From: Gemmatimonadota bacterium
Lineage (GTDB): Bacteria > Gemmatimonadota > Gemmatimonadetes > Gemmatimonadales > GWC2-71-9
DNA length: 64,000 nt
Assembly: GCA_029262195.1 (NCBI GenBank)
Contig: JAJCZX010000010.1
Span: 67,352-131,351 of the forward strand
Reading direction: 5' to 3'
The notes under the pieces are model-generated. The model made no database searches, had not been told where the DNA came from, and worked only from the letters and a program-made list of their open reading frames with translations. Positions 1,809 to 15,621 of the stretch are shown here, piece by piece (within the stretch, counting starts at the first letter, position 1; each line of letters begins with the position of its first letter). Made by a program: the position numbers and the translations under genes.

Positions 1809-1884
<76 letters not shown>

Positions 1885-1896
1885 CTCCCGTAAATC

Positions 1897-2102: not shown

Positions 2103-2690
2103 ATGCCTGCCGCTGCGAGACCGAAGCTCAAGCCTGGAAAAGTCTATCGGACCATGGATTTGGAGAAGTACGGAAAGAACGCCCCACGGTTGGCCAAACG
2201 CTTGGTTGGCGAGGGCCGACTGCATCCGTTGGGGCGTGGAATCTTTGTTCACCGGGAAACCAGCAAGTTCGGCGCTCTGCCTCCAAGCAGAGAAGAACTC
2301 ATGCGGGCTTACCTGAACGGCGGCCGTTTCATTTTCTCGGGGCCCGAACAGTGGAACGTACTCAACCTGGGTTCGACGGCACTGTTCGCCTCCCAGCTCG
2401 TTTACAACGAGGCCCGTAGCGGTGAGGTCGAGCTGGGCGGACGGCGTTTCACTCTCAGACGAGTGGCGTTTCCGCAAAACCCCGCCGCCGAGTACTTCGC
2501 CATTGACCTGATAAAGAATCACCGTCAGGCCGGTGTTTCAGTTGGACGAATTGAGAAGGCAGTTAGTAGAGCCGTGGCTGAGGGGCGGCTGAAACCTTCG
2601 GAGTTGAGGCGCAGTGCGAAACGCTATGGCCGCAAGTCCACGGAGACCGTTGTTGAGACGGCAATCTCGCGAGCCATGGAAAATAGATGA
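2103..2690 (+). CDS. abiEi: AbiEi-like antitoxin / transcriptional regulator (type IV TA)
   Basis: 195 aa. AGGAG lies 5 nt upstream of the ATG. The stop overlaps the start of the AbiEii-type gene (ATGA). The N-terminal segment (RLAKRLVGEGRLHPLGRGIFV) resembles the AbiEi antitoxin N-domain. The call rests mainly on this pairing. Confidence 0.7.
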   Translation: MPAAARPKLKPGKVYRTMDLEKYGKNAPRLAKRLVGEGRLHPLGRGIFVHRETSKFGALPPSREELMRAYLNGGRFIFSGPEQWNVLNLGSTALFASQLVYNEARSGEVELGGRRFTLRRVAFPQNPAAEYFAIDLIKNHRQAGVSVGRIEKAVSRAVAEGRLKPSELRRSAKRYGRKSTETVVETAISRAMENR

Positions 2691-3655
2691 ACCCGATTTT
2701 CTTGCATGATGACCCTGAGTTTCGCGAGCTTATCCGTTTGGTCGCTGATAAGAGGAAAGTTTCTGAGGGGATCGTAGAAAAAGATTATTGGGTGACTCAC
2801 GCCCTGTGGTCTTTAAAAGAAACAGGTCTTGAAATCTACTTCAAAGGCGGTACCTCACTATCCAAAGGCTTCGGGTTGATTGAGCGGTTTTCCGAAGATG
2901 TTGATCTTACGATTGGCCGTGGGTCACGTACTGACTTACCTGAACTCGGAAGCCTCAGGAGTAAGACGCCGGGTGCAACGAAAAAACGGCGCGTATTCTT
3001 CGAAGCTCTTTGTGTAGCTATTGATATTCCCGGCACCACGGGCGTCAGGTTGTTGGCTCCCGCCGACGGTCGTTGGATCAGTGTCGAGTGTGAGGCATAC
3101 TATCCGAAGTTGTTCGAGTTGCCAGGAAACCTGCGCCCCTTCGTGCGGCTGGAACCGGGGCTCCGTTCGTGGAAACCTCCTGCGGTGTCTCGCAACCTCA
3201 CGAGCCTGCTGCACGAGCACGTGTTGGAACTGGGACTGGTGGAGCAATATGTTGACAATCGCCCTGTCGGAATGAGCTGCGTGCATCCACTGGTAACTTT
3301 GATCGACAAGCTTGATTCCGTATCGAAGCGTTACGCGAGGGAAGTTTTCGCTCCCGAAGAATTTGCCCGGCACTACGAAGATCTAGCACATTTGATCGAA
3401 GCCGCGGGCCAATTCCCACAACTTAAGGATGAAACCAAACAGGAAATAGTTAACAATTGTTTGAAAGGACGTGAGATCCATTCGACAGACTCGGCATTTG
3501 AGCTACGGGATGCTAAACGCCGTTCTGCCCTGGAAGCCGCACACCGCGAAATTGATCCAATGTTTTGGGGCCCAAGGATTTCGATTGAGGATTGTTGTGC
3601 TCGGATTGTCAAATGGTTAACCAAGAACCCAATCGGTCCGACTTCGGGTAGGTGA
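2687..3655 (+). CDS. abiEii: AbiEii/AbiGii-family nucleotidyltransferase toxin
   Basis: 322 aa. Carries the hallmark FKGGTSLSKGFGLIERFSEDVDL nucleotidyltransferase motif of the DUF1814/AbiEii family. Confidence 0.85.
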   Translation: MNPIFLHDDPEFRELIRLVADKRKVSEGIVEKDYWVTHALWSLKETGLEIYFKGGTSLSKGFGLIERFSEDVDLTIGRGSRTDLPELGSLRSKTPGATKKRRVFFEALCVAIDIPGTTGVRLLAPADGRWISVECEAYYPKLFELPGNLRPFVRLEPGLRSWKPPAVSRNLTSLLHEHVLELGLVEQYVDNRPVGMSCVHPLVTLIDKLDSVSKRYAREVFAPEEFARHYEDLAHLIEAAGQFPQLKDETKQEIVNNCLKGREIHSTDSAFELRDAKRRSALEAAHREIDPMFWGPRISIEDCCARIVKWLTKNPIGPTSGR

Positions 3656-3769
3656 GTGCTAGGAGGGTTACAACAATGTTGCTGCGCCGGTCGACGCCCA
3701 TCGCTGCTATCGTTAGTTTAACATGCGTGAGTCGACGTCCACCGTTGCCCACCGTCGTAAATCGCGGTT

Positions 3770-4025
3770 CTGATAAGCGTGAGGTCGGCCCGCGGCGGCG
3801 AGCGTAGTGAACATCAATCGCGAACAAAGTGAGCGATGATGACTGCGTAGGCGCGTTTCCACCTGTTCATGTGGCCTGAAACGTGAGGTCGGCATGCGAC
3901 GGCAGCATGTGAGGTGAGCGACTCGATACAGCGCCATTGAAAAGAGCGGTGTGCTTGAAGTGGACCTCCGCTCGCCTTCGGCGATGTTCGGCGGCAAAAA
4001 ACCGCAGCAAATCTTCCCGGCCCAT
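3770..4025 (+). repeat. tRNA-Ile 3'-portion-like fragment A (split)
   Basis: CTGATAAGCGTGAGGTCGG (3770-3788) matches the tRNA from the anticodon loop to the 5' T stem. A second, degenerate copy CCTGAAACGTGAGGTCGG lies at 3875-3892. AAATCTTCCCGGCCCAT (4009-4025) matches the tRNA from the T loop to the 3' end. The intervening ~220 nt is homologous to the inserts of fragments B and D. Confidence 0.7.
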
Positions 4026-4040
4026 TCCAACAAGTCCTGC

Positions 4041-6437
4041 CTAATCTGAGCGGAGAACCCGAACGGGGTCCAACTTGTTCGCCCGTCGCGCCGGCAGGAA
4101 AGAAGCGATCAGCCCGACCGTTCCCTGGAGGATAGCGGCACCGACAAACACGCCGTAGTCGATAGGATTAACACCGAACAGAAGTGATGAAACAACGCGG
4201 GCCAAGGCGAGTGACATGGCTAGACCGACGATTGTTCCTCCAGCCATCCAGACGAATGACCTGCGCATTACGGTCCCGATGATCTGGCCCGACTGGGCCC
4301 CTATTGCTATTCGGATCCCGAGTTCTCGTTGTCGTTGGGAAACAAGAAAGGAAAGTACACCAAAAATCCCCACCGCCGCCAGCAACAGTGCAACTACCGC
4401 AAACCCGACTACCACAATAGCGTTGAACCTCGGCGCTGCCGAAGCCGCGCGGGATAGATCCCCGGTTGTCCCTATGTCGTAAACCGGTGTTCCGGTGGTG
4501 ATTTCTCCAATGCGAGCCATTGCCGCCGATGCGAGTGTAGGAGAGAGGTCGCTACCTCGGATGATCAGGTAGTATGGGTTCCAAGGCCACTGCCGGTGGG
4601 ATTGGTAGTATTGGAGTTCGCTTTCCGTCTCGAGCCCGACGTGCTTTACGTCGTCGACCACTCCGATGATCGTAGGCCCGGTTTCACCGTCGTTGCGAAC
4701 GGCTACTTTACCGACAGCGCTCCCGCGGGGATAAAGCGTCTCGGCCGCCGATCTCGAGACCAGGACGACCGCTCCGGACTCCGGTGTATCGGTTGGCCGA
4801 AAAAGTCTTCCTTCGAGAAGTTCTATTCCCAGGGTCGCGAAGTAATCGTCGCTGACGACGCGCTGCTGTAGCGAGATTGCCTCCTCGTTGCCGGCAGCTA
4901 CACGTTCGGCTGAATTCAGAGAACCGATCGCTCCCTGCCCGGTCAGCGGGAGAAAGGCGGTTACGGCGGCTGATTCAACTCCGGGCAACCCCTTTGTGGC
5001 TTCGAGAATTTGGTCAAGCGCGGTTGCGGTGGCTGCCATGCTTGACAAAGTAGTTGAAGGGAGAGCTATCCTCATCGTCATCGCGTCGCTGTTTGCAAAT
5101 CCCGTATCGACATGGCTCAGGGCGACAAAACTCTTAACAGTGAGGCCCGAGGCGATGACAAGAGTCAGTGCTAGCGCAAATTCGGTTGCCACGAGGGTAC
5201 CGAGCGCGGTATTTCCCGCGCGCCCCGATGAGGCGCCGCCTGATGTGAGCGTGTTGAAAGATTTGGAATGTGCCTGTTTCCAGACCGCCAGAATTCCTGC
5301 GAGGACACCTGCCAGCAACGCCAGGGAGAGCGAAACCAGCAACACGTTCGAGTCGACTGAGATCGATTCGACGCGTGGCAGTTCCGCCGGCGCGTTGCGA
5401 ATCAATAGTTTTACGCCGACGACGGAAAGGAGGACCCCCAGCAGACCGCCGATGATACCGATCAAGGCGGTTTCCGAGATCACGGCGCCAACAATCCGGG
5501 CCTTGCCGGCACCGATGGCCAGTTTCAATTCGGTTTCACGGGTGCGGGATACGCCGCGAGCCAGGGTGAGGTTAGCCAGGTTCACCGCGGCGATGAGGAG
5601 CACAAACCCTACCACCGCCTGGAGCATTAATAGCGGTCCCCTTGTGTCCCCCACGATCGCCGTGTGCAGACCCACTCCTACCGGCTTCCATCCTACGCTT
5701 CTGCGCCCGAGTTCTGCTCCCAATGTTGGAGCAAGGGCATCGAGTTCAGCGTACAATTGTTCTTCTGTAACGCTAGGAGCCAGCCGGCCCACGAGGTCCA
5801 ACCATCTGGCGGTCCATCGCGTTGTGCGGTAGTCGTGGTGAAGAAATATCTCGTATCCCTCACCGTCTATGTCTCGGAACCCGGCATCCGCGACTCCGAT
5901 AATTGTGACGGGCCGTCCGTCGACCTGGATGGCATCACCAATCACTCCGGGGTCAGCGCCGTAACGGCGGGTCCAGAGCCCGTGTGCCAGCACCGCTACT
6001 GCCGTGTCGTCCCGGTCGGAATCGAGGAAGAGCCGGCCGGCCGCCGCTCCCGTGCCAAGTGTTGGGAAAAATGAGGGAGTAACACGTGCGCCTGTAAGTC
6101 TTTCCGTCTCATCAGCGACACCGATTGTGAAGCTGTCTCCGAAATATCCTCCGAGTTCCGCCAGCGCAGCGGTCCGATTTCGGTAAGCGTCGAATTCTAA
6201 CTTGGTAAAGGAGAACCGGGGAAGGTCTTGTTCTGGATTGGAAGCCCAGAGTCGAACCAGCTCGTCCGGTTGGTCATACGGCAAGGGGGTCAGCAGAATG
6301 CCGTTGGTGACGCTGAAAATGGCTCCGTTGGCTCCCACGCCGAGCGTAAGGACCAACAAAGCCGCGACCGTGTATGCCCGTTGCCGCAGCAGAGCGCGAA
6401 TGGCAAACTTCAGATCCTGTGCGATTGCGGAAAACAT
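4041..6437 (-). CDS. FtsX/MacB-type duplicated permease (ADOP family), orphan
   Basis: 798 aa. The N-terminus (DLKFAIRALLRQRAYTVAALLVLTLGVGANGAIFS) and the C-terminal FtsX repeat ending in (LPARRANKLDPVRVLRSD) are typical of the family. GAGGAG lies ~10 nt upstream of the ATG. No adjacent ABC ATPase or PadR gene. Confidence 0.9.
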   Translation of the reverse strand: MFSAIAQDLKFAIRALLRQRAYTVAALLVLTLGVGANGAIFSVTNGILLTPLPYDQPDELVRLWASNPEQDLPRFSFTKLEFDAYRNRTAALAELGGYFGDSFTIGVADETERLTGARVTPSFFPTLGTGAAAGRLFLDSDRDDTAVAVLAHGLWTRRYGADPGVIGDAIQVDGRPVTIIGVADAGFRDIDGEGYEIFLHHDYRTTRWTARWLDLVGRLAPSVTEEQLYAELDALAPTLGAELGRRSVGWKPVGVGLHTAIVGDTRGPLLMLQAVVGFVLLIAAVNLANLTLARGVSRTRETELKLAIGAGKARIVGAVISETALIGIIGGLLGVLLSVVGVKLLIRNAPAELPRVESISVDSNVLLVSLSLALLAGVLAGILAVWKQAHSKSFNTLTSGGASSGRAGNTALGTLVATEFALALTLVIASGLTVKSFVALSHVDTGFANSDAMTMRIALPSTTLSSMAATATALDQILEATKGLPGVESAAVTAFLPLTGQGAIGSLNSAERVAAGNEEAISLQQRVVSDDYFATLGIELLEGRLFRPTDTPESGAVVLVSRSAAETLYPRGSAVGKVAVRNDGETGPTIIGVVDDVKHVGLETESELQYYQSHRQWPWNPYYLIIRGSDLSPTLASAAMARIGEITTGTPVYDIGTTGDLSRAASAAPRFNAIVVVGFAVVALLLAAVGIFGVLSFLVSQRQRELGIRIAIGAQSGQIIGTVMRRSFVWMAGGTIVGLAMSLALARVVSSLLFGVNPIDYGVFVGAAILQGTVGLIASFLPARRANKLDPVRVLRSD

Positions 6438-6604
6438 TCGGTCGGCTCCTCTTCGTGGGGGTCTGAACTAATACCGCAGCTGACCGCTTTTGGCGAGAAA
6501 AAATGTGTCAGAGTTCTGTCAGGTCTGGTCCGGCATCTTGATGATGAACCTGGAACCGGAGTTATCCAGTTGATGGTCGGGTGTTCGAAAGCCTCCCCAG
6601 CACA

Positions 6605-6746
6605 AATCGCTGTCAGTTCCACTGTCAGTTAATGTCGTAGAAGTACGACATCGAAGCGTCAAAGTTACGGCATGGCTCGGTCCAAACGGCGCAAAGTACG
6701 TTAATTTGCCGTAGTTGGCTGCTTATTCTTACAGCCCGACGGATGG
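6605..6746 (+). repeat. conserved repeat-rich block, copy B (precedes tRNA-like fragment B)
   Basis: Aligns by eye with 10179-10307 and 11771-11899. Contains direct CTGTCAGTT repeats at 6610-6618 and 6622-6630, the palindrome TGTCGTA-gaag-TACGACA, and several (C)AAAGT(T)ACG motifs plus an inverted CGTAGTTGG. Confidence 0.75.
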
Positions 6747-7039
6747 CCTGATAAGAGTGAGGTCGTCACGCGAAGGCGAGCGTAGGGAACATCAATCGCG
6801 AACAAAGTGAGCGATGATGACTGCCAACATCGCGAGTCGTTGACGAGCGATGGTTGTGAGTTGAGCGACTAAGTACAGCGCGACTGGAATGAGCGGTGTG
6901 CTTGACCGCGTCCCCGAGTTTACGAGGGGCGCGACTCTGCGCAAAGCGATTGGAACGAGCTTTGTCGCAGGAAGTTCACCTCCGCCCGCTTGCGGCGGTG
7001 CTCGGTGGCATGAAGCCGCAGCAAATCTTCCCAGGCTCA
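6747..7039 (+). repeat. tRNA-Ile 3'-portion-like fragment B (split)
   Basis: CCTGATAAGAGTGAGGTCG (6747-6765) and AAATCTTCCCAGGCTCAC (7022-7039) are separated by ~255 nt. The insert shares long identical stretches with fragment A, for example GAACATCAATCGCGAACAAAGTGAGCGATGATGACTGC. Confidence 0.7.
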
Positions 7040-7040
7040 C

Positions 7041-7649
7041 TCAATACCCATCGACCAGGTCATGCCGGAGAGTCGAAGGAAAGTCCCCCGGTTCATCCTG
7101 CGTAAGCAAAGCCATCAACCTGGGGTTGATGAACAGCTTTTCTCGTCCCGATTGTGTGTGTTCGAGCACCCCTGCGTTTGCCAACTCCCTGAGGTATGAA
7201 GATGCAGTTTGGCGTTGGCGATGCCGGCATCTACGACGTTGGAAATGCGGCAATAGGGTTGTACGAAAACCAGTTCGACCAATTCGCGACTAATAGAATC
7301 CCGGGAACCTGGCTCTGGTGAAGCTCGTTGTTTCGACCATCAACTCTCGAATTGCTCGAATGCGATTTGTGGTCCAGGCTGCGGTTTCCGTCACCGCGCC
7401 CAGCATGAAGAGTAGCCACCCTTCCCAGTCTCCGTCCTGTGTCACGGCATTGAGGAGACTATAATATTCTGACTTTTTTGCGATGATAGCGCGGCTGAGG
7501 TAAAGGATCGGAATTTCGAGTAGGCCGGTCTCTAGTAGATAGAGAAGATTGATGATCCTACCCGTGCGACCATTACCGTCGGAAAAGGGGTGAATCGCCT
7601 CGAACTGGTATTTTTGGATGCGAGGGTGATATGTCGATGTAATCGACAC
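7041..7649 (-). pseudogene. Fic-family gene remnant (N-terminal deletion plus two frameshifts)
   Basis: Near-identical at DNA level to the 3' ~60% of the intact Fic gene at 10504-11631. It retains HPFSDGNGRTGR. Sequence equivalent to codons 1 to ~190 is missing: the 5' UTR is fused at GAACTGGTA/TTGGATGCG. It has a 1-nt insertion (CTAATAG vs CTATAG, ~7290) and a 1-nt deletion (GCGTTGGCG vs GCGTTTGGCG, ~7212). Confidence 0.8.
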
Positions 7650-7787
7650 ATCGAGCTAACGTGTCGAAACAATAAGAAAAAATTGACACGTCTGCGGGCC
7701 TGGTTAGGGCTGTTATTCGGTCCTTTGGATCTGGCGCGTCCTTCCCGCCGGGGCCAGCCGAGACCGCCTTTTATTAACCGCCCTCTT

Positions 7788-8699
7788 CTAACCGCCTTTT
7801 TCTAACGCCTTCTCCGCGTTAGCCTCGGGAGAGTCCCGGCCGTCCAGCCAGCGGATCTCGACGCCCTGACGTTCCATGCGCCGAAACCACGTGTCCTGTC
7901 GTTTGGCGAACTGGTGGATCGCGGCTTCTAGCTGGGAGAACATCTGCTTTCGGGTGATGTCGCCGCGCAGGTGCTCGGTGACGTAGCGGTATTCCAATCC
8001 ATAGAAGATGAGCTGGTCATGGGTCAGCCCGCGACCCAGCAACGTCTCGACTTCTTCGATTAGCCCGTGGTCCAGCCGGTACGCCAATCGTCGCGTGATG
8101 CGCTCTCGCAGCTCGCGGCGCTCCCAGCGAACCCCGAAGACGCGCGAGTCGAGTGCGATCGACGGCGCTCGAGCGGAAGGATCGGCCTCCGCGATTTCGA
8201 TGGCGCGAATCAGGCGTTTGCGATCTTGGACGTCACTCGTATTGTGGAGCGGACCGTGTGATCGAAGCTCGGCGATCAACTGCTCCGTGGGTATCGCCTC
8301 CAGCTCGGCATGGCGTGTTGGGTCTGGCGGAGCGGACAGAAGCTGGTAGTCCTGCAGGACCGCGCTCAGGTAGAGACCGGTGCCGCCGCATAAAACCGGG
8401 AGACGCCCGCGCGAATGGATCTCTCGGATGGCGGCGATGCAGTCCCGTTTGAACTCGAAGAGGTTGTATTCGTACCCGGGGTCGGCAATGTCGATGAGGT
8501 GGTTTGGGACGGTACGGTCGTTGACCGTGTAGTCCTCCCGGTCCTTCCCGGTCCCGATGTCCATGTGCCGGTAGACCTGACGCGAGTCGGCGCTGACCAC
8601 CTCGCCGTTTGCCGCCGCGGCGACGTGAGCTGCGAGACGGGTCTTTCCGGCCGCGGTGGGCCCCAGGATACAAATTAGCGGGATCGGTGACTCAGCCAC
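7788..8699 (-). CDS. miaA: tRNA dimethylallyltransferase
   Basis: 303 aa. P-loop ILGPTAAGKT, SADSRQVYRHMDIGTGK, and overall MiaA-like layout. Confidence 0.93.
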   Translation of the reverse strand: MAESPIPLICILGPTAAGKTRLAAHVAAAANGEVVSADSRQVYRHMDIGTGKDREDYTVNDRTVPNHLIDIADPGYEYNLFEFKRDCIAAIREIHSRGRLPVLCGGTGLYLSAVLQDYQLLSAPPDPTRHAELEAIPTEQLIAELRSHGPLHNTSDVQDRKRLIRAIEIAEADPSARAPSIALDSRVFGVRWERRELRERITRRLAYRLDHGLIEEVETLLGRGLTHDQLIFYGLEYRYVTEHLRGDITRKQMFSQLEAAIHQFAKRQDTWFRRMERQGVEIRWLDGRDSPEANAEKALEKGG

Positions 8700-9927
8700 G
8701 GAGGTAATCCTCCTGGCGATAGCGGTCTTCCATTTTGAAGAGCATCCGCCGTATCCCGTCGAGTTCCGGAATGCTCAGCTCGGCCAGCGTGCGCTCGCAG
8801 AGAAAAGACCGCGCATGTGATGCCTCGGACTCCGTTCCTGGAAGGACGCTCCCGTGCCGGTCCAGCCAATCGATCAACGTCGCCCGATCATCCGTCGGCA
8901 CCCGACGATACTCGGCTTTCAGGTACTGCAAGATGCGGAGCCCGTCGAGTCGCTCGTGGCAGGCGCGGACGAATCGATCCACCGTCTTGTGGTTCTCGCG
9001 CAGTGGTTGCCAGGGGTCATCGGTGTCGGTTTTTTTGCGAAGGAATCCGTCCAGCGGAGTCTCTACCGGCGCGGCGAACAGATTGGGGAAGGCCTCGGTC
9101 GTGCGGCGAACCCTGTCGAAGAGTTCTGCAGGATAAAGTGGGTAGCGGTCGGTGTATTCGCCCTCGCACGCCGCGACGATGGCTTGACCGGTACCGACGG
9201 GAACGCGCCAGGACTTGCGGGTCGCTGGAGCGACCGGAGCGTCGGACCAGTGAAGCACCCGGCCGTGTTTGGTCAGTTTCTGCAGAAAGTAGAAGTCCTC
9301 GCCGCTGGTGCGAGGCGTCAGGCCCCCCACCTTCCGGTAGACGTACACCGGCAGCGCGATCGCCGAGCCGAGCGCGGTGAACGCGTAAGGCGACCCGATT
9401 CGCCACAGGTTGAGGGCGTAGTAGCGCATGTAGATCTCGTACCCCAACATGGCGCGCGTGACGGCGTCGTCTTCCGTGAGGGGATGGAGGTATCGCGCCG
9501 ACAGGCCGCAGGCAGTCGGGTGCCGGGCGAATGCGGCGACGAGCGACTGCAGGTAGCCCGGGGGCGTCAGGGTGTCGGCGTCCAGGCTGACGATGAGATC
9601 GTGAGGGGCGGCCGCAGCACTGATCGCATCCATCAATTCCTTCCGGGCGTGGCCGACTCCGCCCCGCTTCGGCGGCCAGCCCCGGCCCGGCGAGGTGCGG
9701 TCGATGATGCGGAGGTCGAGGTCCGTGATGGCGGAGAGCAGTTGGAGAGAGGCCTGGTTCGCATCGCGCACGACACGTCGATCCGGGTCGTGTTGCCAGG
9801 CCTCCGGTTGGTTGACGCATAGCCAGGTGACGAATCGCACTCCGTCTTGTTGCCGAAGCGCGTCGAGGCAGCCGGGAAGGCGCTCGACCTCGTCCTGAAC
9901 CGGGATGGCTACGTGGACAATCGGCAC
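8692..9927 (-). CDS. glycosyltransferase, family 2-like
   Basis: 411 aa. N-terminal Rossmann-like GT-A start (VAIPVQDEVERLPGCLDAL) and a DxD-type motif (SLDADT). Overlaps miaA by 8 nt. Confidence 0.7.
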   Translation of the reverse strand: MPIVHVAIPVQDEVERLPGCLDALRQQDGVRFVTWLCVNQPEAWQHDPDRRVVRDANQASLQLLSAITDLDLRIIDRTSPGRGWPPKRGGVGHARKELMDAISAAAAPHDLIVSLDADTLTPPGYLQSLVAAFARHPTACGLSARYLHPLTEDDAVTRAMLGYEIYMRYYALNLWRIGSPYAFTALGSAIALPVYVYRKVGGLTPRTSGEDFYFLQKLTKHGRVLHWSDAPVAPATRKSWRVPVGTGQAIVAACEGEYTDRYPLYPAELFDRVRRTTEAFPNLFAAPVETPLDGFLRKKTDTDDPWQPLRENHKTVDRFVRACHERLDGLRILQYLKAEYRRVPTDDRATLIDWLDRHGSVLPGTESEASHARSFLCERTLAELSIPELDGIRRMLFKMEDRYRQEDYLRG

Positions 9928-10178
9928 GGTTGAACCTCGGGTGACTGCATCCCCAGCGCGCCGGTACAGGCTAACCTCTCTTCCTCGACCGCTTCAAATG
10001 GCAGGAACGCCGGAGCCTCAGATTGTCGTCGGTTATGTCGTGAGCTTCAATCAACGAGGTGATCCATTCGTTCGGATTCGTCATAAAATCTCCTCTACGT
10101 CAGGAAAATTGTTCACACCGGTATAATATGTAGCCATCTTCAGGTGGCGAATGGAATGATGACTCAACGTCTCCGTCG

Positions 10179-10307
10179 AATCGCTGTCGGTTCGACTGTC
10201 GGTTAATGTCGTAAAAGTACGGCACGATAACGTCAAAGTACGGTATAGCTCGGTCCAAACGTCGCAAAGTACGTTAATTTGCCGTAGTTGGCTGCTTATT
10301 CATATGG
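10179..10307 (+). repeat. conserved repeat-rich block, copy C
   Basis: Homologous to 6605-6746 and 11771-11899 (AATCGCTGTCGGTTCGACTGTCGGTTAATGTCGTAAAAGTACGG...GCCGTAGTTGGCTGC). Confidence 0.75.
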
Positions 10308-10419
10308 CCTGATAAGCGTGAGGTCGGAACGCAAAGGCGGCAACCGCCATGTCTCTGGTCCTATCTGGTCCAACCTTTGATTTGCGGCAATCTGTGGCTT
10401 TCGAATCTCCCAGGCCCAC
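10308..10419 (+). repeat. tRNA-Ile 3'-portion-like fragment C (split, shortest insert)
   Basis: CCTGATAAGCGTGAGGTCGG (10308-10327) is identical to the tRNA. GAATCTCCCAGGCCCAC lies at 10403-10419. The insert is ~75 nt. Confidence 0.7.
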
Positions 10420-10503
10420 TTTCCACAAGTTCAAACCCGCTTCGAGGCCGTTCACTGTTTTGTTCCACCGTCCTACAGTCCGACACCTCCCACTTTGTTC
10501 CTA

Positions 10504-11631
10504 TCAAGGCTGGGAATCGAAGGAAAGGTCCCCCGGTTCATCTTGTGTCAGCAACGACATCAGCCGGGGGTTGATGAACAGCTTCTCTCGTCCCGATTGT
10601 GTGTGTTCGAGCACCCCTGCGTTTGCCAACTCCCTGAGGTATGAAGATGCAGTTTGGCGTTTGGCGATGCCGGCATCTACGACGTTGGAAATGCGGCAAT
10701 AGGGTTGTACGAAAATCAGTTCAACCAATTCGCGACTATAGAACCCCGGGAACCTGTCTCTGGTGAAGCTCGTTGTTTCGACCATCAACTCTCGAATTGC
10801 TCGAATGCGATTTGTGGTCCAAGCTGCGGTTTCCGTCACGGCGGCCAGCATGAAGAGTAGCCAGCCTTCCCAGTCACCGTCCTGTGTTACGGCATTGAGG
10901 AGGCGGTAATATTCTGACTTTTTTGTGATGATGGCGCGGCTGAGGTAAAGGACCGGCAGTTCGAGTAGTCCGGTCTCTAGCAGATAGAGAAGATTGATAA
11001 TCCTGCCCGTGCGACCATTGCCGTCGGAAAAAGGGTGAATCGCCTCGAACTGGTAGTGTGCCACCGCCATACGAATAAGTGGGTCCAACGAATCATGATT
11101 GTGAAGGAACGATTCCCAGTTGGAAAGCAGGTCGCGAAGCAAGTCAGGGCCTTCGGGGGGAGTATAGATCGTATCTCCAGTCGCCTCGTTCATCAGGGCA
11201 GTGCCGGGCACCCGCCTAATCTGCATTTCGCAGCCCTTCAGGACGGAACAGACGTTCACCGCCGTAGCGATTGAGAGCGGTTTCGCCGCGATTATCTCGG
11301 CGCCGCGTCGAAGGGCAGCCCGGTAGCGGAGCGCTTCCTTCGTGGCGGGGTCGGCACCGTCTTCTCTGCCGGGACTTGCAAATTGAAACAAGCGGTCGGC
11401 CGTCGTTACGATATTCTCGATCTCGGAACTGGCGCGGGCCTCCAGAAGCGGGATGGTATTGATGAGCACATCCTGATTGGGCAGGAGAGCACCGGCTTGT
11501 TTCAACTCTGCAATGGCGGATCGTGCGTTGATGCACGCTTTTAGAACGGGTCGCGTTTCCAGGTCAGCTTCCGGCGGCAAACGGGGCAAGTCATTGTAAG
11601 CTCTTTCTGGATAAGGTTTTAGCATGGCCAA
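10504..11631 (-). CDS. Fic-family protein (class II, auto-inhibited) with C-terminal winged-helix region
   Basis: 375 aa. Active-site motif HPFSDGNGRTGR. N-terminal inhibitory motif SSEIEN fits (S/T)xxxE(G/N). C-terminal wHTH-like segment [24 protein letters not shown]. Confidence 0.92.
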   Translation of the reverse strand: MAMLKPYPERAYNDLPRLPPEADLETRPVLKACINARSAIAELKQAGALLPNQDVLINTIPLLEARASSEIENIVTTADRLFQFASPGREDGADPATKEALRYRAALRRGAEIIAAKPLSIATAVNVCSVLKGCEMQIRRVPGTALMNEATGDTIYTPPEGPDLLRDLLSNWESFLHNHDSLDPLIRMAVAHYQFEAIHPFSDGNGRTGRIINLLYLLETGLLELPVLYLSRAIITKKSEYYRLLNAVTQDGDWEGWLLFMLAAVTETAAWTTNRIRAIRELMVETTSFTRDRFPGFYSRELVELIFVQPYCRISNVVDAGIAKRQTASSYLRELANAGVLEHTQSGREKLFINPRLMSLLTQDEPGDLSFDSQP

Positions 11632-11684
11632 AATGAGTTCCTGGATGCGGAAGTGATATGTCGATGCAATCGACGCATCGGGCT

Positions 11685-11724
11685 AACGTGTCGAAATAAT
11701 AAGAAAATTTCGACACGTTGACAA
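11685..11724 (-). promoter_or_regulatory. putative Fic promoter embedded in a perfect 13-bp inverted repeat
   Basis: On the minus strand the promoter reads TTGTCA, 17 nt, TATTAT. The inverted repeat AACGTGTCGAAAT-9nt-ATTTCGACACGTT (11685-11719) spans the spacer and -10. A second inverted repeat, GTCGAT-tgc-ATCGAC, lies in the ~58-nt leader. Confidence 0.45.
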
Positions 11725-11770
11725 GAACTCAGTTTTAGGGCTGGATTTAGCTCCTTCTCGACCTCGTTAG

Positions 11771-11899
11771 CTGGGTGTCGGTCTTACTGTCGGTTAATGT
11801 CGTCAAAGTACGGCATGGAAGAGTCAAACTACGGCATGGCTCGGTCCGAAACGTCGCGGTATACGTTAAGATGCCGTAGTTGGCTGCGTATTGGGCTGG
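11771..11899 (+). repeat. conserved repeat-rich block, copy D
   Basis: Homologous to copies B and C (GTGTCGGTCTTACTGTCGGTTAATGTCGTCAAAGTACGGCATGG...GCCGTAGTTGGCTGC). Confidence 0.7.
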
Positions 11900-12073
11900 C
11901 CTGATATGCGTGAGGTCGGAATGCGAAGGCGAGCATTGTGAGTTGAGCGACTTTGCGCGCTGCAAATTCGCCGCTCGCCTGCACCATTCTGCAATCCCCC
12001 GTTCCACTGCGATACCCAAGTCATCTGATCAGATCAGCGTTTAATCTGCGGCTTCCAAATCTCCCAGACCCAC
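11900..12073 (+). repeat. tRNA-Ile 3'-portion-like fragment D (split)
   Basis: CCTGATATGCGTGAGGTCGG (11900-11919) and AAATCTCCCAGACCCAC (12057-12073) are separated by ~135 nt. The downstream flank (…CGACTTAGC…TTTTATTTTT, 12081-12130) resembles the terminator region after the intact tRNA. Confidence 0.7.
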
Positions 12074-12247
12074 TTCCCGCAAAGTTGAGCTCAGCTCCGA
12101 CTTAGCTCCTGGCAGGGTTTTATTTTTCGTGCCGAAAAGTGGCCTACTGTCGGGGGCTGCTGTCAATTGATTGCCTGCCGTCCCTTGGCTGCAGATGGAC
12201 CCATGCGTTAGTCGGCGTGACGATCCGTTGCCAGGGGGCTGATGGAT

Positions 12248-12276
12248 ATCCGGCCAGCCCGTCGAGCTGGCCGGAT
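12248..12276 (-). terminator. stem-loop downstream of the lipoprotein gene (possible terminator)
   Basis: Perfect 11-bp stem ATCCGGCCAGC / GCTGGCCGGAT with a 7-nt loop. No U tract on either strand. Confidence 0.3.
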
Positions 12277-12330
12277 GGATCCTGTGGGTGCGCTTCGGGC
12301 CTTGCCCAACTCAAAAAATACTCCGGGCCG

Positions 12331-12828
12331 TTACCGCCGAAAAACAACCTCGTGGGATTCAGATTGTCGGGTACGCGGGTCGACTGTAAGTGTCGCAAAA
12401 ATTTCGTCACCTTCAAGTCTGAGGTTGGTCAGGGCCATAATAGGTAGCGTACTGAAATCGCGACTCAAAGTAATCGTGGTGCCGTCGAGAGCAAATTCTC
12501 CTTCTTCTTCGACCAATGAACGGCCGTCGGGATCCGAAGCCACGGCACCCATAGAGACAGCCGTCAGGGCTTTATTCGTAATTACGAAAGAAGCCTTGTA
12601 GTCGGTCGCTCCCAATGCAATGGTTCCTCCTCTCCAGTGACAGCAGCCCCGGTCGGGGTCCTGGGGTAGAGTCTGGCCATTGAAGGAAACCATTGTATAA
12701 ACGGACGGCTCCGTTCGGCCGTCTGAGCAACCTGAAAAAATAGTGACCCCCACCAAGCCAACGACGAGAGACAAGAATCGAGGTGAGTACCCGAAACGGG
12801 GTTTGTCGATACCCTTGTTCAAAGACAT
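12331..12828 (-). CDS. hypothetical lipoprotein
   Basis: 165 aa. Signal peptide with lipobox (LVGVTIFSGC SDG). Confidence 0.6.
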   Translation of the reverse strand: MSLNKGIDKPRFGYSPRFLSLVVGLVGVTIFSGCSDGRTEPSVYTMVSFNGQTLPQDPDRGCCHWRGGTIALGATDYKASFVITNKALTAVSMGAVASDPDGRSLVEEEGEFALDGTTITLSRDFSTLPIMALTNLRLEGDEIFATLTVDPRTRQSESHEVVFRR

Positions 12829-13178
12829 TCTTTACCTCATTCGCTAGGGCTGCGAAGGTGAGCAGCCCGGTTTTCGTGAAATTCGGTTTGGGTGAAGCCA
12901 AGGTGTTACGGCGTTGGTTACCCAGCATTCCACACCGGGTTCCGGCCGGTGGGCCCAGTGGTGCTGTGGGAAGGGTACAAAACAGCCAATCTTCCTTATT
13001 ACCGAAAGGGAACCGAGCGCCTCTCGCAATTGATCCAAGTCGGGCCGCCGGTAGCACTTGATGATGGTGTTGACATCCTTCCGGCCCACCGAGGGCACAG
13101 AGTTGCTTCGGAGGGAGCTGGTCGGGTGGTTGCCTCCTTCTCAGACCGTGCCAGGTCTGAATTCCACGACGAGGAGAT

Positions 13179-13421
13179 CTAATTTCGCCCCAGTGACCAA
13201 TTCACCAATTCTTTCACAGCGGCAACCAGAGCGACACCCCACAGAGTTGCCGCAGTGGCTATCTGAACACATATCCCGGCCGCTATGGCTAACAAGATCA
13301 CACCGGAAGCGACAGCAACCGACTGGGAAACGACTACCAGTCCTCCCAGGACTGCTACCGAAAACATTATCAAGGCCACCGTTGGCCGGGTGAGCCCGGG
13401 AACTCTTTCTTGAGTGAACAT
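13179..13421 (-). CDS. small hypothetical membrane protein (2 TM)
   Basis: 80 aa with two hydrophobic helices. AGGA lies ~10 nt upstream of the ATG, and the gene is downstream of the sigma-54 promoter. An alternative-frame ORF (13141-13536) overlaps it completely, so the frame is uncertain. Confidence 0.4.
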   Translation of the reverse strand: MFTQERVPGLTRPTVALIMFSVAVLGGLVVVSQSVAVASGVILLAIAAGICVQIATAATLWGVALVAAVKELVNWSLGRN

Positions 13422-13531
13422 TGGCGCCAGGTCCTTTCCGCCGATGAGCCCCGTTTTTTCGCATCCCCTGTGTCCTTAAGATTTGGTCGAATGACACGCT
13501 AATCAAATGCTCACCTCCAATATCATTCACT

Positions 13532-13547
13532 TGCATTTCCCGGGCCA
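13532..13547 (-). promoter_or_regulatory. sigma-54 (-24/-12) promoter
   Basis: The minus strand reads TGGCCC-GGGAA-ATGCA against the consensus TGGCAC-N5-TTGCA. The GG and GC dinucleotides have the canonical spacing. It lies ~100 nt downstream of the sigma-54 activator gene and points at the small ORFs. Confidence 0.5.
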
Positions 13548-13643
13548 GACGCGTCGGTATATAGGACGTAGTTGTTGGCCGGGAGGCTGGAACCTGTGTT
13601 ACAAATTCGTGATTTTCGGAACCGCGTTTGTTTCAGTTGTGAA

Positions 13644-15044
13644 TCATTCGTCGCGCGTTCGCCGATAGGCCTTTGGGTCGATCGAATATTTGGTGAGCTT
13701 GCGCCAGAACGTGGGGCGGCTGATACCTAACTCTTCCGCGGCGTGCCCCGAATGTCCTGCATTGTTGATGAGTGCGGCAACGACGGTTTCTGCTTCGGCA
13801 CGTTGGAGGGGGAACCACTGTTGCGTACCCAAATGAGCGTCCATGAGAGGTCTGGGCGGCTGCAATTCTTCCGGCAAGTGACGGACATCGATGAGTCCTG
13901 AGTGGCAAAACGCGAACGTGTACTCGATGATATTCATCAATTCCCGAGCGTTGCCGGGGAATTGATGCCTGATCAGGATTTCGGCCACGGCCGGGGTGAC
14001 GCCGTCGACGTTTCGACCGGTCTTAGTATTGAAGCGTTCAATGAAATGATCGATCAGGTAGGGGATGTCTTCCTTTCGCTCCTTCAACGGCGGTATCGAA
14101 AGCCGCACAACAGCCAGGCGGAAATATAGGTCATCTCGAAAGAGACCCTGCTTGACCATGTCGGGAAGTTTTTTGTTGGTTGCAGCCACTACTCGTACAT
14201 CGGCTTTGAGCGGACCCGTTCCGCCAACGGGCTCATATTCTCGTTCCTGCAACAACCGCAGCAATTTCCCCTGGGTTTCCGGCAGCAAGTCACCGATCTC
14301 GTCGAAGAAGATAGTACCGCCCTCGGCCGCTTTGACCCGACCGGGTTTATCTTTTTTAGCGTCTGTGAAGGCACCCTTCTTGTATCCGAACAACTCCGAC
14401 TCAACCAGATTCGTCGGCAGTGTACCGCAATTGACCACTACATAGGGTCCGGCTTTTCGATGCCCCAGGTTGTGGATTGCTCGTGCTATCAACTCCTTTC
14501 CGGAGCCGCTCGGGCCTTCGATCAGTACGGTACTTTCGCTTTCTGATATCTCGGGCAGAATCCGAAACATCTTCTGGAATGCCTCGCTTTTTCCGACAAT
14601 GTCCTCTACAGTGTGCTGCGAATGAATTTCACGCCGAAGTTGCTCGAGGTCGGAGAGATCCCGGAATGTTTCGACAGCCCCAATGACGTTGCCGGTCTCG
14701 TCACGAAGTACCGCTGCGTTGATGTGGATTGGGATTTTGCGGCCATCCTGGCGAGTAATACGGGCAGGGCGCTCAGTGACCTCAATATCTGTATCCCATA
14801 TTTTGCGGATCGGGCAGTCGGAAGCACAGAGGTCGGAGTGAAAAACATCAGAGCAGGATCTACCGATGGCCTTTTGAGCCTGGACTCCCGTGATTCGCTC
14901 GGCGGCGCGGTTGAATGAAGTTATCCTGAGTTTTTGATCAACCGTAAACACTCCGTCCGCAATGTTTTGCAGAACGATCTGGAAGAACTCTGGTTCCGTC
15001 TCCGGTCGCATTGCAATCCCGATCAGATCGGCGGGGCTGGGCAA
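13644..15044 (-). CDS. sigma-54-dependent transcriptional activator (PAS-AAA+-Fis HTH)
   Basis: 466 aa. N-terminal PAS-like region, Walker A GPSGSGKE, GAFTDA loop, ESELFGY, and C-terminal Fis-type HTH (AAEELGISRPTFWRKL). No receiver domain. Confidence 0.92.
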   Translation of the reverse strand: MPSPADLIGIAMRPETEPEFFQIVLQNIADGVFTVDQKLRITSFNRAAERITGVQAQKAIGRSCSDVFHSDLCASDCPIRKIWDTDIEVTERPARITRQDGRKIPIHINAAVLRDETGNVIGAVETFRDLSDLEQLRREIHSQHTVEDIVGKSEAFQKMFRILPEISESESTVLIEGPSGSGKELIARAIHNLGHRKAGPYVVVNCGTLPTNLVESELFGYKKGAFTDAKKDKPGRVKAAEGGTIFFDEIGDLLPETQGKLLRLLQEREYEPVGGTGPLKADVRVVAATNKKLPDMVKQGLFRDDLYFRLAVVRLSIPPLKERKEDIPYLIDHFIERFNTKTGRNVDGVTPAVAEILIRHQFPGNARELMNIIEYTFAFCHSGLIDVRHLPEELQPPRPLMDAHLGTQQWFPLQRAEAETVVAALINNAGHSGHAAEELGISRPTFWRKLTKYSIDPKAYRRTRDE

Positions 15045-15145
15045 TTGTTATTTGGCCAACCCTGCCCCCGCGTTGGCATAGCCGATCCAACGAGCGGGAA
15101 ATGTTGATACACGGTCAGGATATAAAGGGGGGCGTGACGTGGTGG

Positions 15146-15340
15146 TTAAAAACCCGTTAGAATGTCCTTAGACAGGGGAACTAAATGTCGTTCTCTAAGT
15201 GCTGCAAGCGCATCCGTTGCCCAGTCGAGTAGGGCCGCGGTAAATATTCCCAGGCCCATTGGAATGGTGATTCCAGAATGGCGGATTGAGAATAGTGAAT
15301 TCTGCATTGCCGTCCGCCATTCAGTCTTCTGCAATCTCAT
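15146..15340 (-). CDS. small hypothetical protein
   Basis: 64-aa ORF between two same-strand genes. GAGG lies ~8 nt upstream of the ATG. It has one hydrophobic segment. Confidence 0.3.
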   Translation of the reverse strand: MRLQKTEWRTAMQNSLFSIRHSGITIPMGLGIFTAALLDWATDALAALRERHLVPLSKDILTGF

Positions 15341-15363
15341 GGTCCAACCTCACTCTCGCACCG

Positions 15364-15621
15364 TCACACCTCGGCCTCGCCTCTGACACCTTTGGTGCTT
15401 AACAGAGTCCACATGCTGATCAACGCCCAGGCCGCTTCGAGCACAACGAAACCGACACGTCGGTCGGCGACTGCGACTACGGTGAGAAGGCCGGCCCCCA
15501 CGATGTTAGCCCACAGATAGAGCCGGTTCGTGTTGTTGCACCGGTTACGATGAAGGGCGAGATAGGCGCCAAGCACGCAGGCGGCTCCGAGCGATGATGC
15601 TCCTTGTAAAAACAATTCCAT
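15364..15621 (-). CDS. small membrane protein (3 TM)
   Basis: The ORF is open from 15702, but the internal ATG at 15621 has GAGGT ~5 nt upstream and begins directly with the hydrophobic core (MELFLQGASSLGAACVLGAYLAL). Confidence 0.55.
   Translation of the reverse strand: MELFLQGASSLGAACVLGAYLALHRNRCNNTNRLYLWANIVGAGLLTVVAVADRRVGFVVLEAAWALISMWTLLSTKGVRGEAEV

Follow-up and report, generated by a model that had tools for sequence, protein, structure and literature searches.

The stretch of DNA analysed here, 64,000 nucleotides from a Gemmatimonadota bacterium (the window), carries an intact tRNA-Ile(GAT) gene and four copies of the 3' half of that gene (fragments A to D), each of them interrupted in the T arm. 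Are these split copies the scars of nested integration, or parts of a structured RNA? An earlier note on this DNA had set two readings side by side: nested integration by recombinases specific for the anticodon loop and the T loop, followed by decay to scars, or a transcribed, tRNA-derived structured element that travels with a Fic module. Most likely the pieces are relics of DNA recombination, possibly still recombination substrates, and not tRNA or RNA genes, and the evidence for a new functional RNA is not good.

An Array of Gene Cassettes beside the tRNA-Ile(GAT) Gene

The sole intact tRNA that ARAGORN and Rfam found in the window is tRNA-Ile(GAT). Its gene, followed by a terminator hairpin, is the left anchor of an array of gene cassettes in tandem, and fragments A to D punctuate the 13-kb stretch to its right (Table 1). 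Reading rightwards, the tRNA gene is followed by the AbiEi-like and AbiEii genes, fragment A, the MacB/FtsX permease gene, an arm with fragment B, a truncated Fic gene with its operator, miaA together with a GT2 glycosyltransferase gene, an arm with fragment C, a full SoFic-like Fic gene with its operator, an arm with fragment D, two small ORFs and a sigma-54 activator, and a remnant of the 3' piece (remnant E) that is the probable right limit of the array. The cassettes are delimited by the junctions, and the spacing from C to D, 1592 bp, is that of one Fic islet. The putative AbiEi-like ORF (2103-2690) had no Pfam match and is assigned by position only. No integrase (Phage_integrase) was present among the 30 window ORFs scanned.

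Toxin-antitoxin modules flank the tRNA gene on both sides, a putative VapBC-like pair recognised by eye upstream of it at 1019-1717, and the AbiEii gene with its putative AbiEi-like partner at 2103-3655. At the other end of the array remnant E is followed by a strong inverted repeat, AATGGCGGA...TCCGCCATT, and the remnant may mark the original right end.

Table 1. Features of the array in the window, from left to right.
Feature	Coordinates	Strand	Basis and remarks
Intact tRNA-Ile(GAT) gene	1811-1885	+	ARAGORN; Rfam RF00005, 77.9 bits
Islet 1 cargo: putative AbiEi-like antitoxin gene, then AbiEii toxin gene	2103-3655	+	AbiEii, Pfam PF08843
Arm A	3660-3768	+	Direct repeat GTCGACGYCCAYCG, two copies; read from sequence
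Fragment A	3769-4025	+	5' piece 3769-3788; M1-M2 3789-3810; hairpin module 3811-3846; second 5' piece 3875-3892; ~65-nt unit 3893-3957; AAGTGGA 3958-3964; 44-nt T-loop insert 3965-4008; 3' piece 4009-4025
MacB/FtsX-type permease, cargo	4041-6437	-	Pfam PF12704 and PF02687
Arm B	6598-6746	+	CTGTCAGTT twice; three GTC..AAGTACG-type repeats; GCCGTAGTTGGCTGC
Fragment B	6747-7040	+	5' piece 6747-6766; M1-M2 6767-6788; hairpin module 6789-6854; unit copy M3a 6855-6905; unit copy M3b 6921-6971; AAGTTCA 6972-6978; 44-nt T-loop insert 6979-7022; 3' piece 7023-7040
Truncated Fic gene with conserved operator/promoter	7041-7720	-	93% identical to full copy
GT2-miaA operon, conserved chromosomal gene pair within the array	7788-9927	-	Pfam
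Arm C	10172-10307	+	Orthologous at 96% to the F2 arm of L151
Fragment C	10308-10419	+	5' piece 10308-10327; M1 10328-10339; then C-specific sequence with a GGCGG/CCGCC hairpin; T-loop-like segment and 3' piece 10400-10419
Full SoFic-like Fic gene (10504-11625) with promoter and palindromic operator	10504-11740	-	Pfam PF13784, PF02661, PF21248; promoter scan
Arm D	11770-11899	+	Similarity to arms B and C
Fragment D	11900-12073	+	5' piece 11900-11919; M1 to unit start 11920-11952; D-specific sequence; 3' piece 12056-12073; then trailer and terminator-like hairpin
Remnant E, 3' piece only	15235-15259	+	CCGCGGTAAATATTCCCAGGCCCAT, end of T-loop insert and 3' piece

Anatomy of the Split 3' Halves

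The 5' piece of the fragments, CCTGATAAGCGTGAGGTCGG, extends from the anticodon loop through the 3' anticodon stem and the variable region to the second base of the T stem. Searched with three or fewer mismatches, a limit at which 0.01 matches are expected by chance, it was found at 1842 in the real tRNA and at 3769, 6747, 10308 and 11900 in the fragments, whose copies have 0-2 mismatches. The 3' piece, AAATCTTCCCAGGCCCAC, which runs from the T loop to the 3' end, was found again with that limit at 7023 and 15242, and in degenerate form at 4009-4025, 10400-10419 and 12056-12073. The repeats thus go far beyond chance, and the split tRNA-like fragments reported before are real. Identity to the tRNA begins in all copies at the anticodon loop (tRNA position ~30), with non-tRNA sequence upstream, and the block of identity is interrupted by 67-256 nt in every copy of the window and of its relative L151 (see below). 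As had been noticed, no copy in the window has a contiguous tRNA 3' part: where the real tRNA has only AAGTTC between the two pieces, the fragments have 72-256 nt of partly homologous sequence, namely 220 nt in A (3789-4008), 256 nt in B (6767-7022), about 72 nt in C and 136 nt in D. Each tRNA-derived piece in the window has 1-3 changes, and these copies are more decayed than those of L151.

The homology among the inserts, also described earlier, was confirmed in its details. A 77-nt block is 92% identical between A and B, GTGAG(G/T)TGAGCGACT occurs in A, B and D, a second internal CCTGAAACGTGAGGTCGG lies in A at 3875-3892, and D corresponds to B with a deletion between GCGAGCG repeats. All copies have in common the first 12 nt of the insert, NNNGCRRMGGCR (module M1), and most of them continue with the motif TGAGCGACT and then a hairpin (module M3). 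The inserts of the window consist of this unit of M1, motif and M3 hairpin, as in L151, with nested additions: a hairpin module with GCGAGCG repeats at its borders and a second insert of 44 nt in the T loop, at TTCA^AAT, in A and B; a second copy of the unit in B only; and a second core (5' piece) stacked inside fragment A only. C and D part from the other copies once past M1 or the start of the unit.

Three possible sources of the insert were rejected. Its similarity to the tRNA trailer/terminator was not significant (z at most 2.5), nor was that to degenerate copies of tRNA-Ile, except for the explicit second core in A, and a position weight matrix scan for the arm-type sites of the upstream arm gave no significant result in the insert.

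Direct-Repeat Arms Upstream of the 5' Pieces

Each 5' piece is preceded by an arm rich in direct repeats. Arms B, C and D, of ~130 nt each, are 83-90% identical among copies and, together with the arm of fragment F2 in L151, belong to a type that has CTGTCRGTT twice and GTC..AAGTACG three times. Arm A is unrelated to arms B, C and D, and the arm of the other L151 fragment, F1, is of a third type, with ATGTTCGCAAACAT and GGGTTACGTTT repeats, so that there are at least three types of arm with 2-5 direct repeats each. By their arrangement these repeats are candidate arm-type sites of a tyrosine integrase, for which direct repeats of this kind are typical. The 15-mer GCCGTAGTTGGCTGC had 120 matches in viral contigs, none of them beside a tRNA core. 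That the arm might be a hidden, degenerate tRNA 5' half was ruled out, the Rfam tRNA model giving no match at E<=10.

An inverted repeat, GCTTAT...ATAAGC, spans from the arm's end into the anticodon-loop piece (10293-10320, 11885-11912, 6720-6758). In D it reads GCGTAT...ATATGC, both sides being changed with a G-T pair kept, a single case of paired change.

A Simpler State of the Insert in a Relative

The contig L151 is 96% identical to the window over 7806-10339, including arm C and the 5' piece, and the homology breaks at 10339, 12 nt into insert C. L151 has two fragments, F1 and F2, on either side of GT2-miaA. In both of them the 5' piece is followed by an insert of 67-68 nt and then by the complete AAGTTCAAATCTTCCCAGGCCCAC. 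These copies are simpler than those of the window. In the T stem the L151 insert separates G50 from A51 precisely, no tRNA base having been lost, and in F2 it has AA on both sides. It is the T stem, on its 5' strand (G50^A51), and not the T loop that is primarily interrupted, most clearly so in L151. Such a clean insertion is not a product of conservative site-specific recombination.

Between F1 and F2, 1 of 44 positions differs in the tRNA-derived parts and 13 of 69 in the insert (p=0.008). The tRNA-derived pieces are thus far better conserved than the insert between them, which argues against inert scars. Their low divergence has two fitting explanations: recombination or conversion may keep renewing the pieces from the tRNA gene, or both pieces may still be in use.

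Uninterrupted tRNA-Ile Attachment Sites in Viral Contigs

A 19-mer of the 5' piece was present in 39 viral contigs, and in every one that shows the sequence downstream the T arm and acceptor end are uninterrupted. About 14 of these contigs have non-tRNA sequence upstream of the piece and represent att-like sites. Given this contiguous 3' half, the split form is derived. One viral contig, L119, presents the whole plan, with GCTGTCAAC three times, the core, the uninterrupted 3' half, GGTGTCAAT twice and then a tyrosine integrase gene. The arm and 5' piece of the window agree with this layout, but the interruption does not.

The split form itself was not encountered in the viral contigs, where split tRNA-Ile patterns with gaps of 25-55 and 55-85 and the unit-junction pattern each gave 0 matches. 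In 185,579 species genomes the junction pattern GTGAGGTCGKMMYGCRRMGGCRGC gave 12 matches, all of them chance matches in GC-rich coding sequence, and none of the 12 had the tRNA piece upstream. BLAST of the arm with fragment B against plasmid and phage collections returned no match, and neither a covariance model of the unit nor BLAST revealed further copies of the insert in the 64-kb window and 10 related loci.

At 11200-12766 L119 has the complete tRNA-Ile attP-like region, including the terminator, with the adjacent tyrosine integrase of 416 aa; among the viral contigs this integrase had no relatives besides L119 itself. The region is a useful reference for the tRNA-Ile target site.

Fic Genes and Their Linkage to the Fragments

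Homologues of the Fic protein are very numerous, at 56-74% identity, and no exact match to that of the window is on record. In 89 other Fic loci (664 kb) a tRNA-Ile fragment was found once, in L016, and no partial duplicates of tRNAs around Fic were seen in the loci with tRNAs nearby. With a tRNA-Ile core at only 1 of the 89 loci, Fic is cargo of some elements at the site and not the partner of the fragment. L151 agrees: Fic adjoins neither F1 nor F2 on the sequenced flanks, the contig ending ~80 nt beyond F2. That part of the second original reading in which a structured element travels with Fic is therefore not supported. What alone travels with Fic is a ~100-nt palindromic operator upstream of the gene, widely conserved in the 89 loci.

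The single tRNA-Ile fragment found, in the Gemmatimonadota genome L016, is also split. It has an arm of TGTCGRTT repeats, and its 3' half reads GGTAG-T, then 50 nt, then CAACT-CTACC-CAGGCCCA. The insert is unrelated to that of the window and lies within the T loop of a tRNA-Ile variant, which is intact in L110 and L119. A T-loop split that arose independently here is a hint of some systematic process.

The Fic upstream region lies at 11640-11740 and 7615-7715 in the window and is conserved in many contigs unrelated to one another, L013, L015, L016, L137-L139 and others. Its nested palindromes (TCGACAGGTC, GACCTGTCG and ATCGACAGGTC, followed by ACGTGTCGAAA...TTTCGACA) overlap the predicted promoter and are probably an autoregulatory operator, putatively for the C-terminal winged-helix domain. 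The truncated Fic gene (7041-7649) has lost ~600 bp internally, which code for the N-terminal half, relative to the full gene (10504-11625), and has kept the operator.

Probable Attachment-Site Junctions of Integrative Islets

It is fairly probable, in our judgement, that the fragments are attachment-site junctions (attR- or attP-like) in a tandem array of small, now integrase-less integrative islets. The first original reading, that of scars, is right in kind: the 5' pieces start at the anticodon loop, behind direct-repeat arms, they delimit tandem cassettes, and A has two stacked cores. Anatomy, arm repeats, array, the simpler L151 state and the contiguous form seen elsewhere are direct observations; how the 67-bp insertion came about, and in what order the changes followed, we infer. 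The islets would have used the anticodon loop of tRNA-Ile(GAT) as crossover site, each junction being made up of a direct-repeat arm, a core (anticodon loop and 3' anticodon stem) and an R side to the right of the crossover. In normal elements R is an unbroken tRNA 3' half, and integration thereby repairs the gene. In the lineage of the window and L151, R may have gained the precise insertion of ~67 bp between G50 and A51 of the T stem, and the interrupted R would then have spread from junction to junction, through recombination at the core or through gene conversion. The copies of the window may have grown further by the GCGAGCG-bounded hairpin module, the tandem copy of the unit, the 44-bp insertion in the T loop and, in A, the stacked second core. 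The intact tRNA at 1811 would owe its 3' half to an element with uninterrupted R. Since interrupted junctions cannot rebuild a working tRNA, they would mark integration into pseudo-sites or decay after displacement. With no integrase in the scanned window ORFs, recombination activity is inferred from anatomy alone.

A second recombinase specific for the T loop, as the first original reading had supposed, is rather unlikely. The fragments would then be composite sites, the 5' piece being the core of an anticodon-loop integrase, the T arm and 3' end the core of a T-loop integrase, and the insert a spacer with the remnant arm of a T-loop-type element. Both tRNA-derived pieces being near-identical to the tRNA while the insert diverges is in keeping with this. 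C and D also keep a whole T-loop-like segment (TTCGAAT/TCCAAAT) after a degenerate left half-site, the extra insertion in A and B is exactly in the T loop, and so is the split of L016. T loops are reportedly a known class of integrase target (Williams 2002). However, conservative recombination is expected to leave an insert flanked by a duplicated T-loop-to-3'-end block, and no insert is so flanked, those of L151 included. The primary break falls within the T stem, on its 5' strand, rather than in the loop, the left junction common to all copies means that a single event suffices, and neither type of integrase was found in the window ORFs scanned.

Structure of the Insert

At the gathering thresholds of Rfam 15 the sole match was the real tRNA, and at E<=10 on 3400-15600 there were 0 matches in the fragments. 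The Infernal/Rfam scan that had been proposed for these fragments thus assigned them to no family, whether tRNA, tmRNA, intron or ribozyme. The 9-bp bulged hairpin highlighted in the earlier note as a conserved one exists (3811-3846, 6789-6824), but it is not family-wide, being present only in A and B, where its sequence is identical and as such carries no covariation information.

The M3 hairpin behaves differently. Its consensus is paired in 92% of cells, and three pairs are changed on both sides with pairing kept, all of them in one paralogue (M3b); 12-29 of 500 shuffles reach the observed measures. In column shuffling M3 had a z of -2.8 for the plus strand, with 0 of 300 shuffles reaching so low a value, and of -0.7 for the minus strand; the other segments of the insert ranged from -0.8 to -1.8 (plus strand) and stayed near 0 (minus strand). 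Single compensatory changes are also seen in the M1 stem, where CACGC/GCGT becomes CATGC/GCATG, and in the M4 stem, where T-A in one of A and B is C-G in the other. In this set of 5-8 copies from two closely related strains, the compensatory changes of M3 give suggestive but weak support for conservation of a plus-strand structure, and the RNA part of the second original reading keeps this modest trace. Terminator-like hairpins on the plus strand come after D and after F2. The promoter scan predicted no plus-strand promoter.

We therefore weighed whether the insert is a functional, hairpin-rich plus-strand module in the attachment region of the islets, either as a structured RNA of tRNA origin or as a site in single-stranded DNA, for example a transfer origin or an accessory site of recombination. 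The pairing in M3 with its three double changes and strand difference, the compensatory changes in the M1 and M4 stems, the motif TGAGCGACT conserved beside the hairpin and the terminator-like hairpins after D and F2 would all follow from it. We nevertheless hold it unlikely. The copies are few and from two close strains, the three double changes all fall in M3b, and modules are gained and lost between close relatives. Correction of quasi-palindromes can yield compensatory-type changes without selection, and so mimic it. Moreover, there is neither an Rfam match nor a predicted plus-strand promoter, and no homologue was found outside the lineage of L151 and the window in species genomes, plasmids, phages and viral contigs.

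The bolder proposal that the interrupted 3' half is a maintained composite recombination site, in which two conserved tRNA-derived cores and a hairpin-rich spacer with plus-strand structure serve to shuffle integrase-less cassettes, is quite improbable. If it were true, cassettes of one to three genes (Fic, AbiE, the permease, even GT2-miaA) would be shuffled integron-like with the functional tRNA untouched, and the spacer would be an RNA signal or a single-stranded-DNA signal.

Improbable as well is a chance landing of miniature mobile or palindromic elements (REP-, RPE- or MITE-like) in a neutral tRNA fragment as the origin of the ~67-nt unit and the other small inserts. In its favour, the insertion is precise, with 0 target bases lost and AA to either side of it in F2, the modules are rich in hairpins, nested and repeated, and three independent small insertions (44-68 nt) fall within a T arm of 17 nt; against it, there is no further copy in the 64-kb window or the 10 related loci, and terminal inverted repeats are absent.

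Two further complementarities were observed. GGCCTG at the start of the 5' piece (10305-10310) can pair with CAGGCC in the 3' piece (10409-10414) in an acceptor-like helix of 6 bp, which has equivalent positions in B, D and F2 and is not conserved in A or F1; the complementarity arises in part because GCCTG is present twice in tRNA-Ile. The GGCGG/CCGCC hairpin of fragment C (10336-10348) is weakly terminator-like on the minus strand, which is the Fic strand, and lies ~160 nt past the Fic stop codon.

Relation to Known Systems

Displaced fragments of tRNA genes and tandem islands at tRNA genes, together with their tyrosine integrases, have been described (Islander database, PMC4383910; tRNA gene fragments, PMC9897764). 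The array resembles Islander-type islands in the repeat of the tRNA 3' portion from the anticodon loop, the direct-repeat arms beside the core, the stacking beside one intact tRNA gene and the cargo of toxin-antitoxin and defence-type genes. It differs from them in that every copy has its tRNA block broken in the T arm, when all of the att sites examined for comparison were contiguous, that no integrase remains in the array, and that a core operon lies inside it. The array is a variant of the well-known displaced tRNA fragments and island accretion, and its unusual feature is the shared interruption.

In CIMEs of the ICESt1/ICESt3 type, cis-mobilisable segments without an integrase, integrative elements grow by accretion. 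Like them, the array has integrase-less segments bounded by att sites in tandem with other elements, and its sites may by analogy be shuffled by recombination at a shared core; unlike in CIMEs, no helper element or integrase was identified for it, and its mobilisation is putative. Downstream of the tyrT gene of E. coli, 178-bp repeats that are short, close and in tandem are co-transcribed with the tRNA and yield the rtT RNA. These likewise repeat partial tRNA 3' ends with non-tRNA sequence downstream of a tRNA gene, but have neither intervening genes nor an interruption of the T arm. With integron cassette arrays the window shares units of one to three genes bounded by structured sites of variable length with imperfect hairpins; it has no IntI integrase, attI or attC consensus, however, and its sites are tRNA-derived with arm-type repeats.

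If the fragments are only scars, the locus is a well-resolved case of island accretion and decay at a tRNA gene, and shows that displaced tRNA fragments can mislead annotation. If the site is maintained, it would represent a class of attachment site that no longer rebuilds the tRNA and serves cassette exchange at pseudo-sites, with an integron-like assembly of defence and toxin genes. This second possibility is open because the tRNA pieces are better conserved than the insert and because of the compensatory changes in the hairpins.

The GT2-miaA Operon inside the Array

The presence of the GT2-miaA core operon within the array is unexplained by a simple history of tandem integration. Relatives match it at 83-96% identity, 83-90% apart from L151, and only over 7806-9945; their flanks are unrelated. 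An empty tRNA-Ile site was sought through the synteny of these relatives, and none was recovered, the flanks differing in every one of them. The homology to the relatives ends no more than 20 nt from the ends of the genes. Both the window and L151 have the gene pair between att-like fragments, and the predicted minus-strand promoter of GT2-miaA, at 10150-10123, lies beyond the limit of this homology and is common only to L151.
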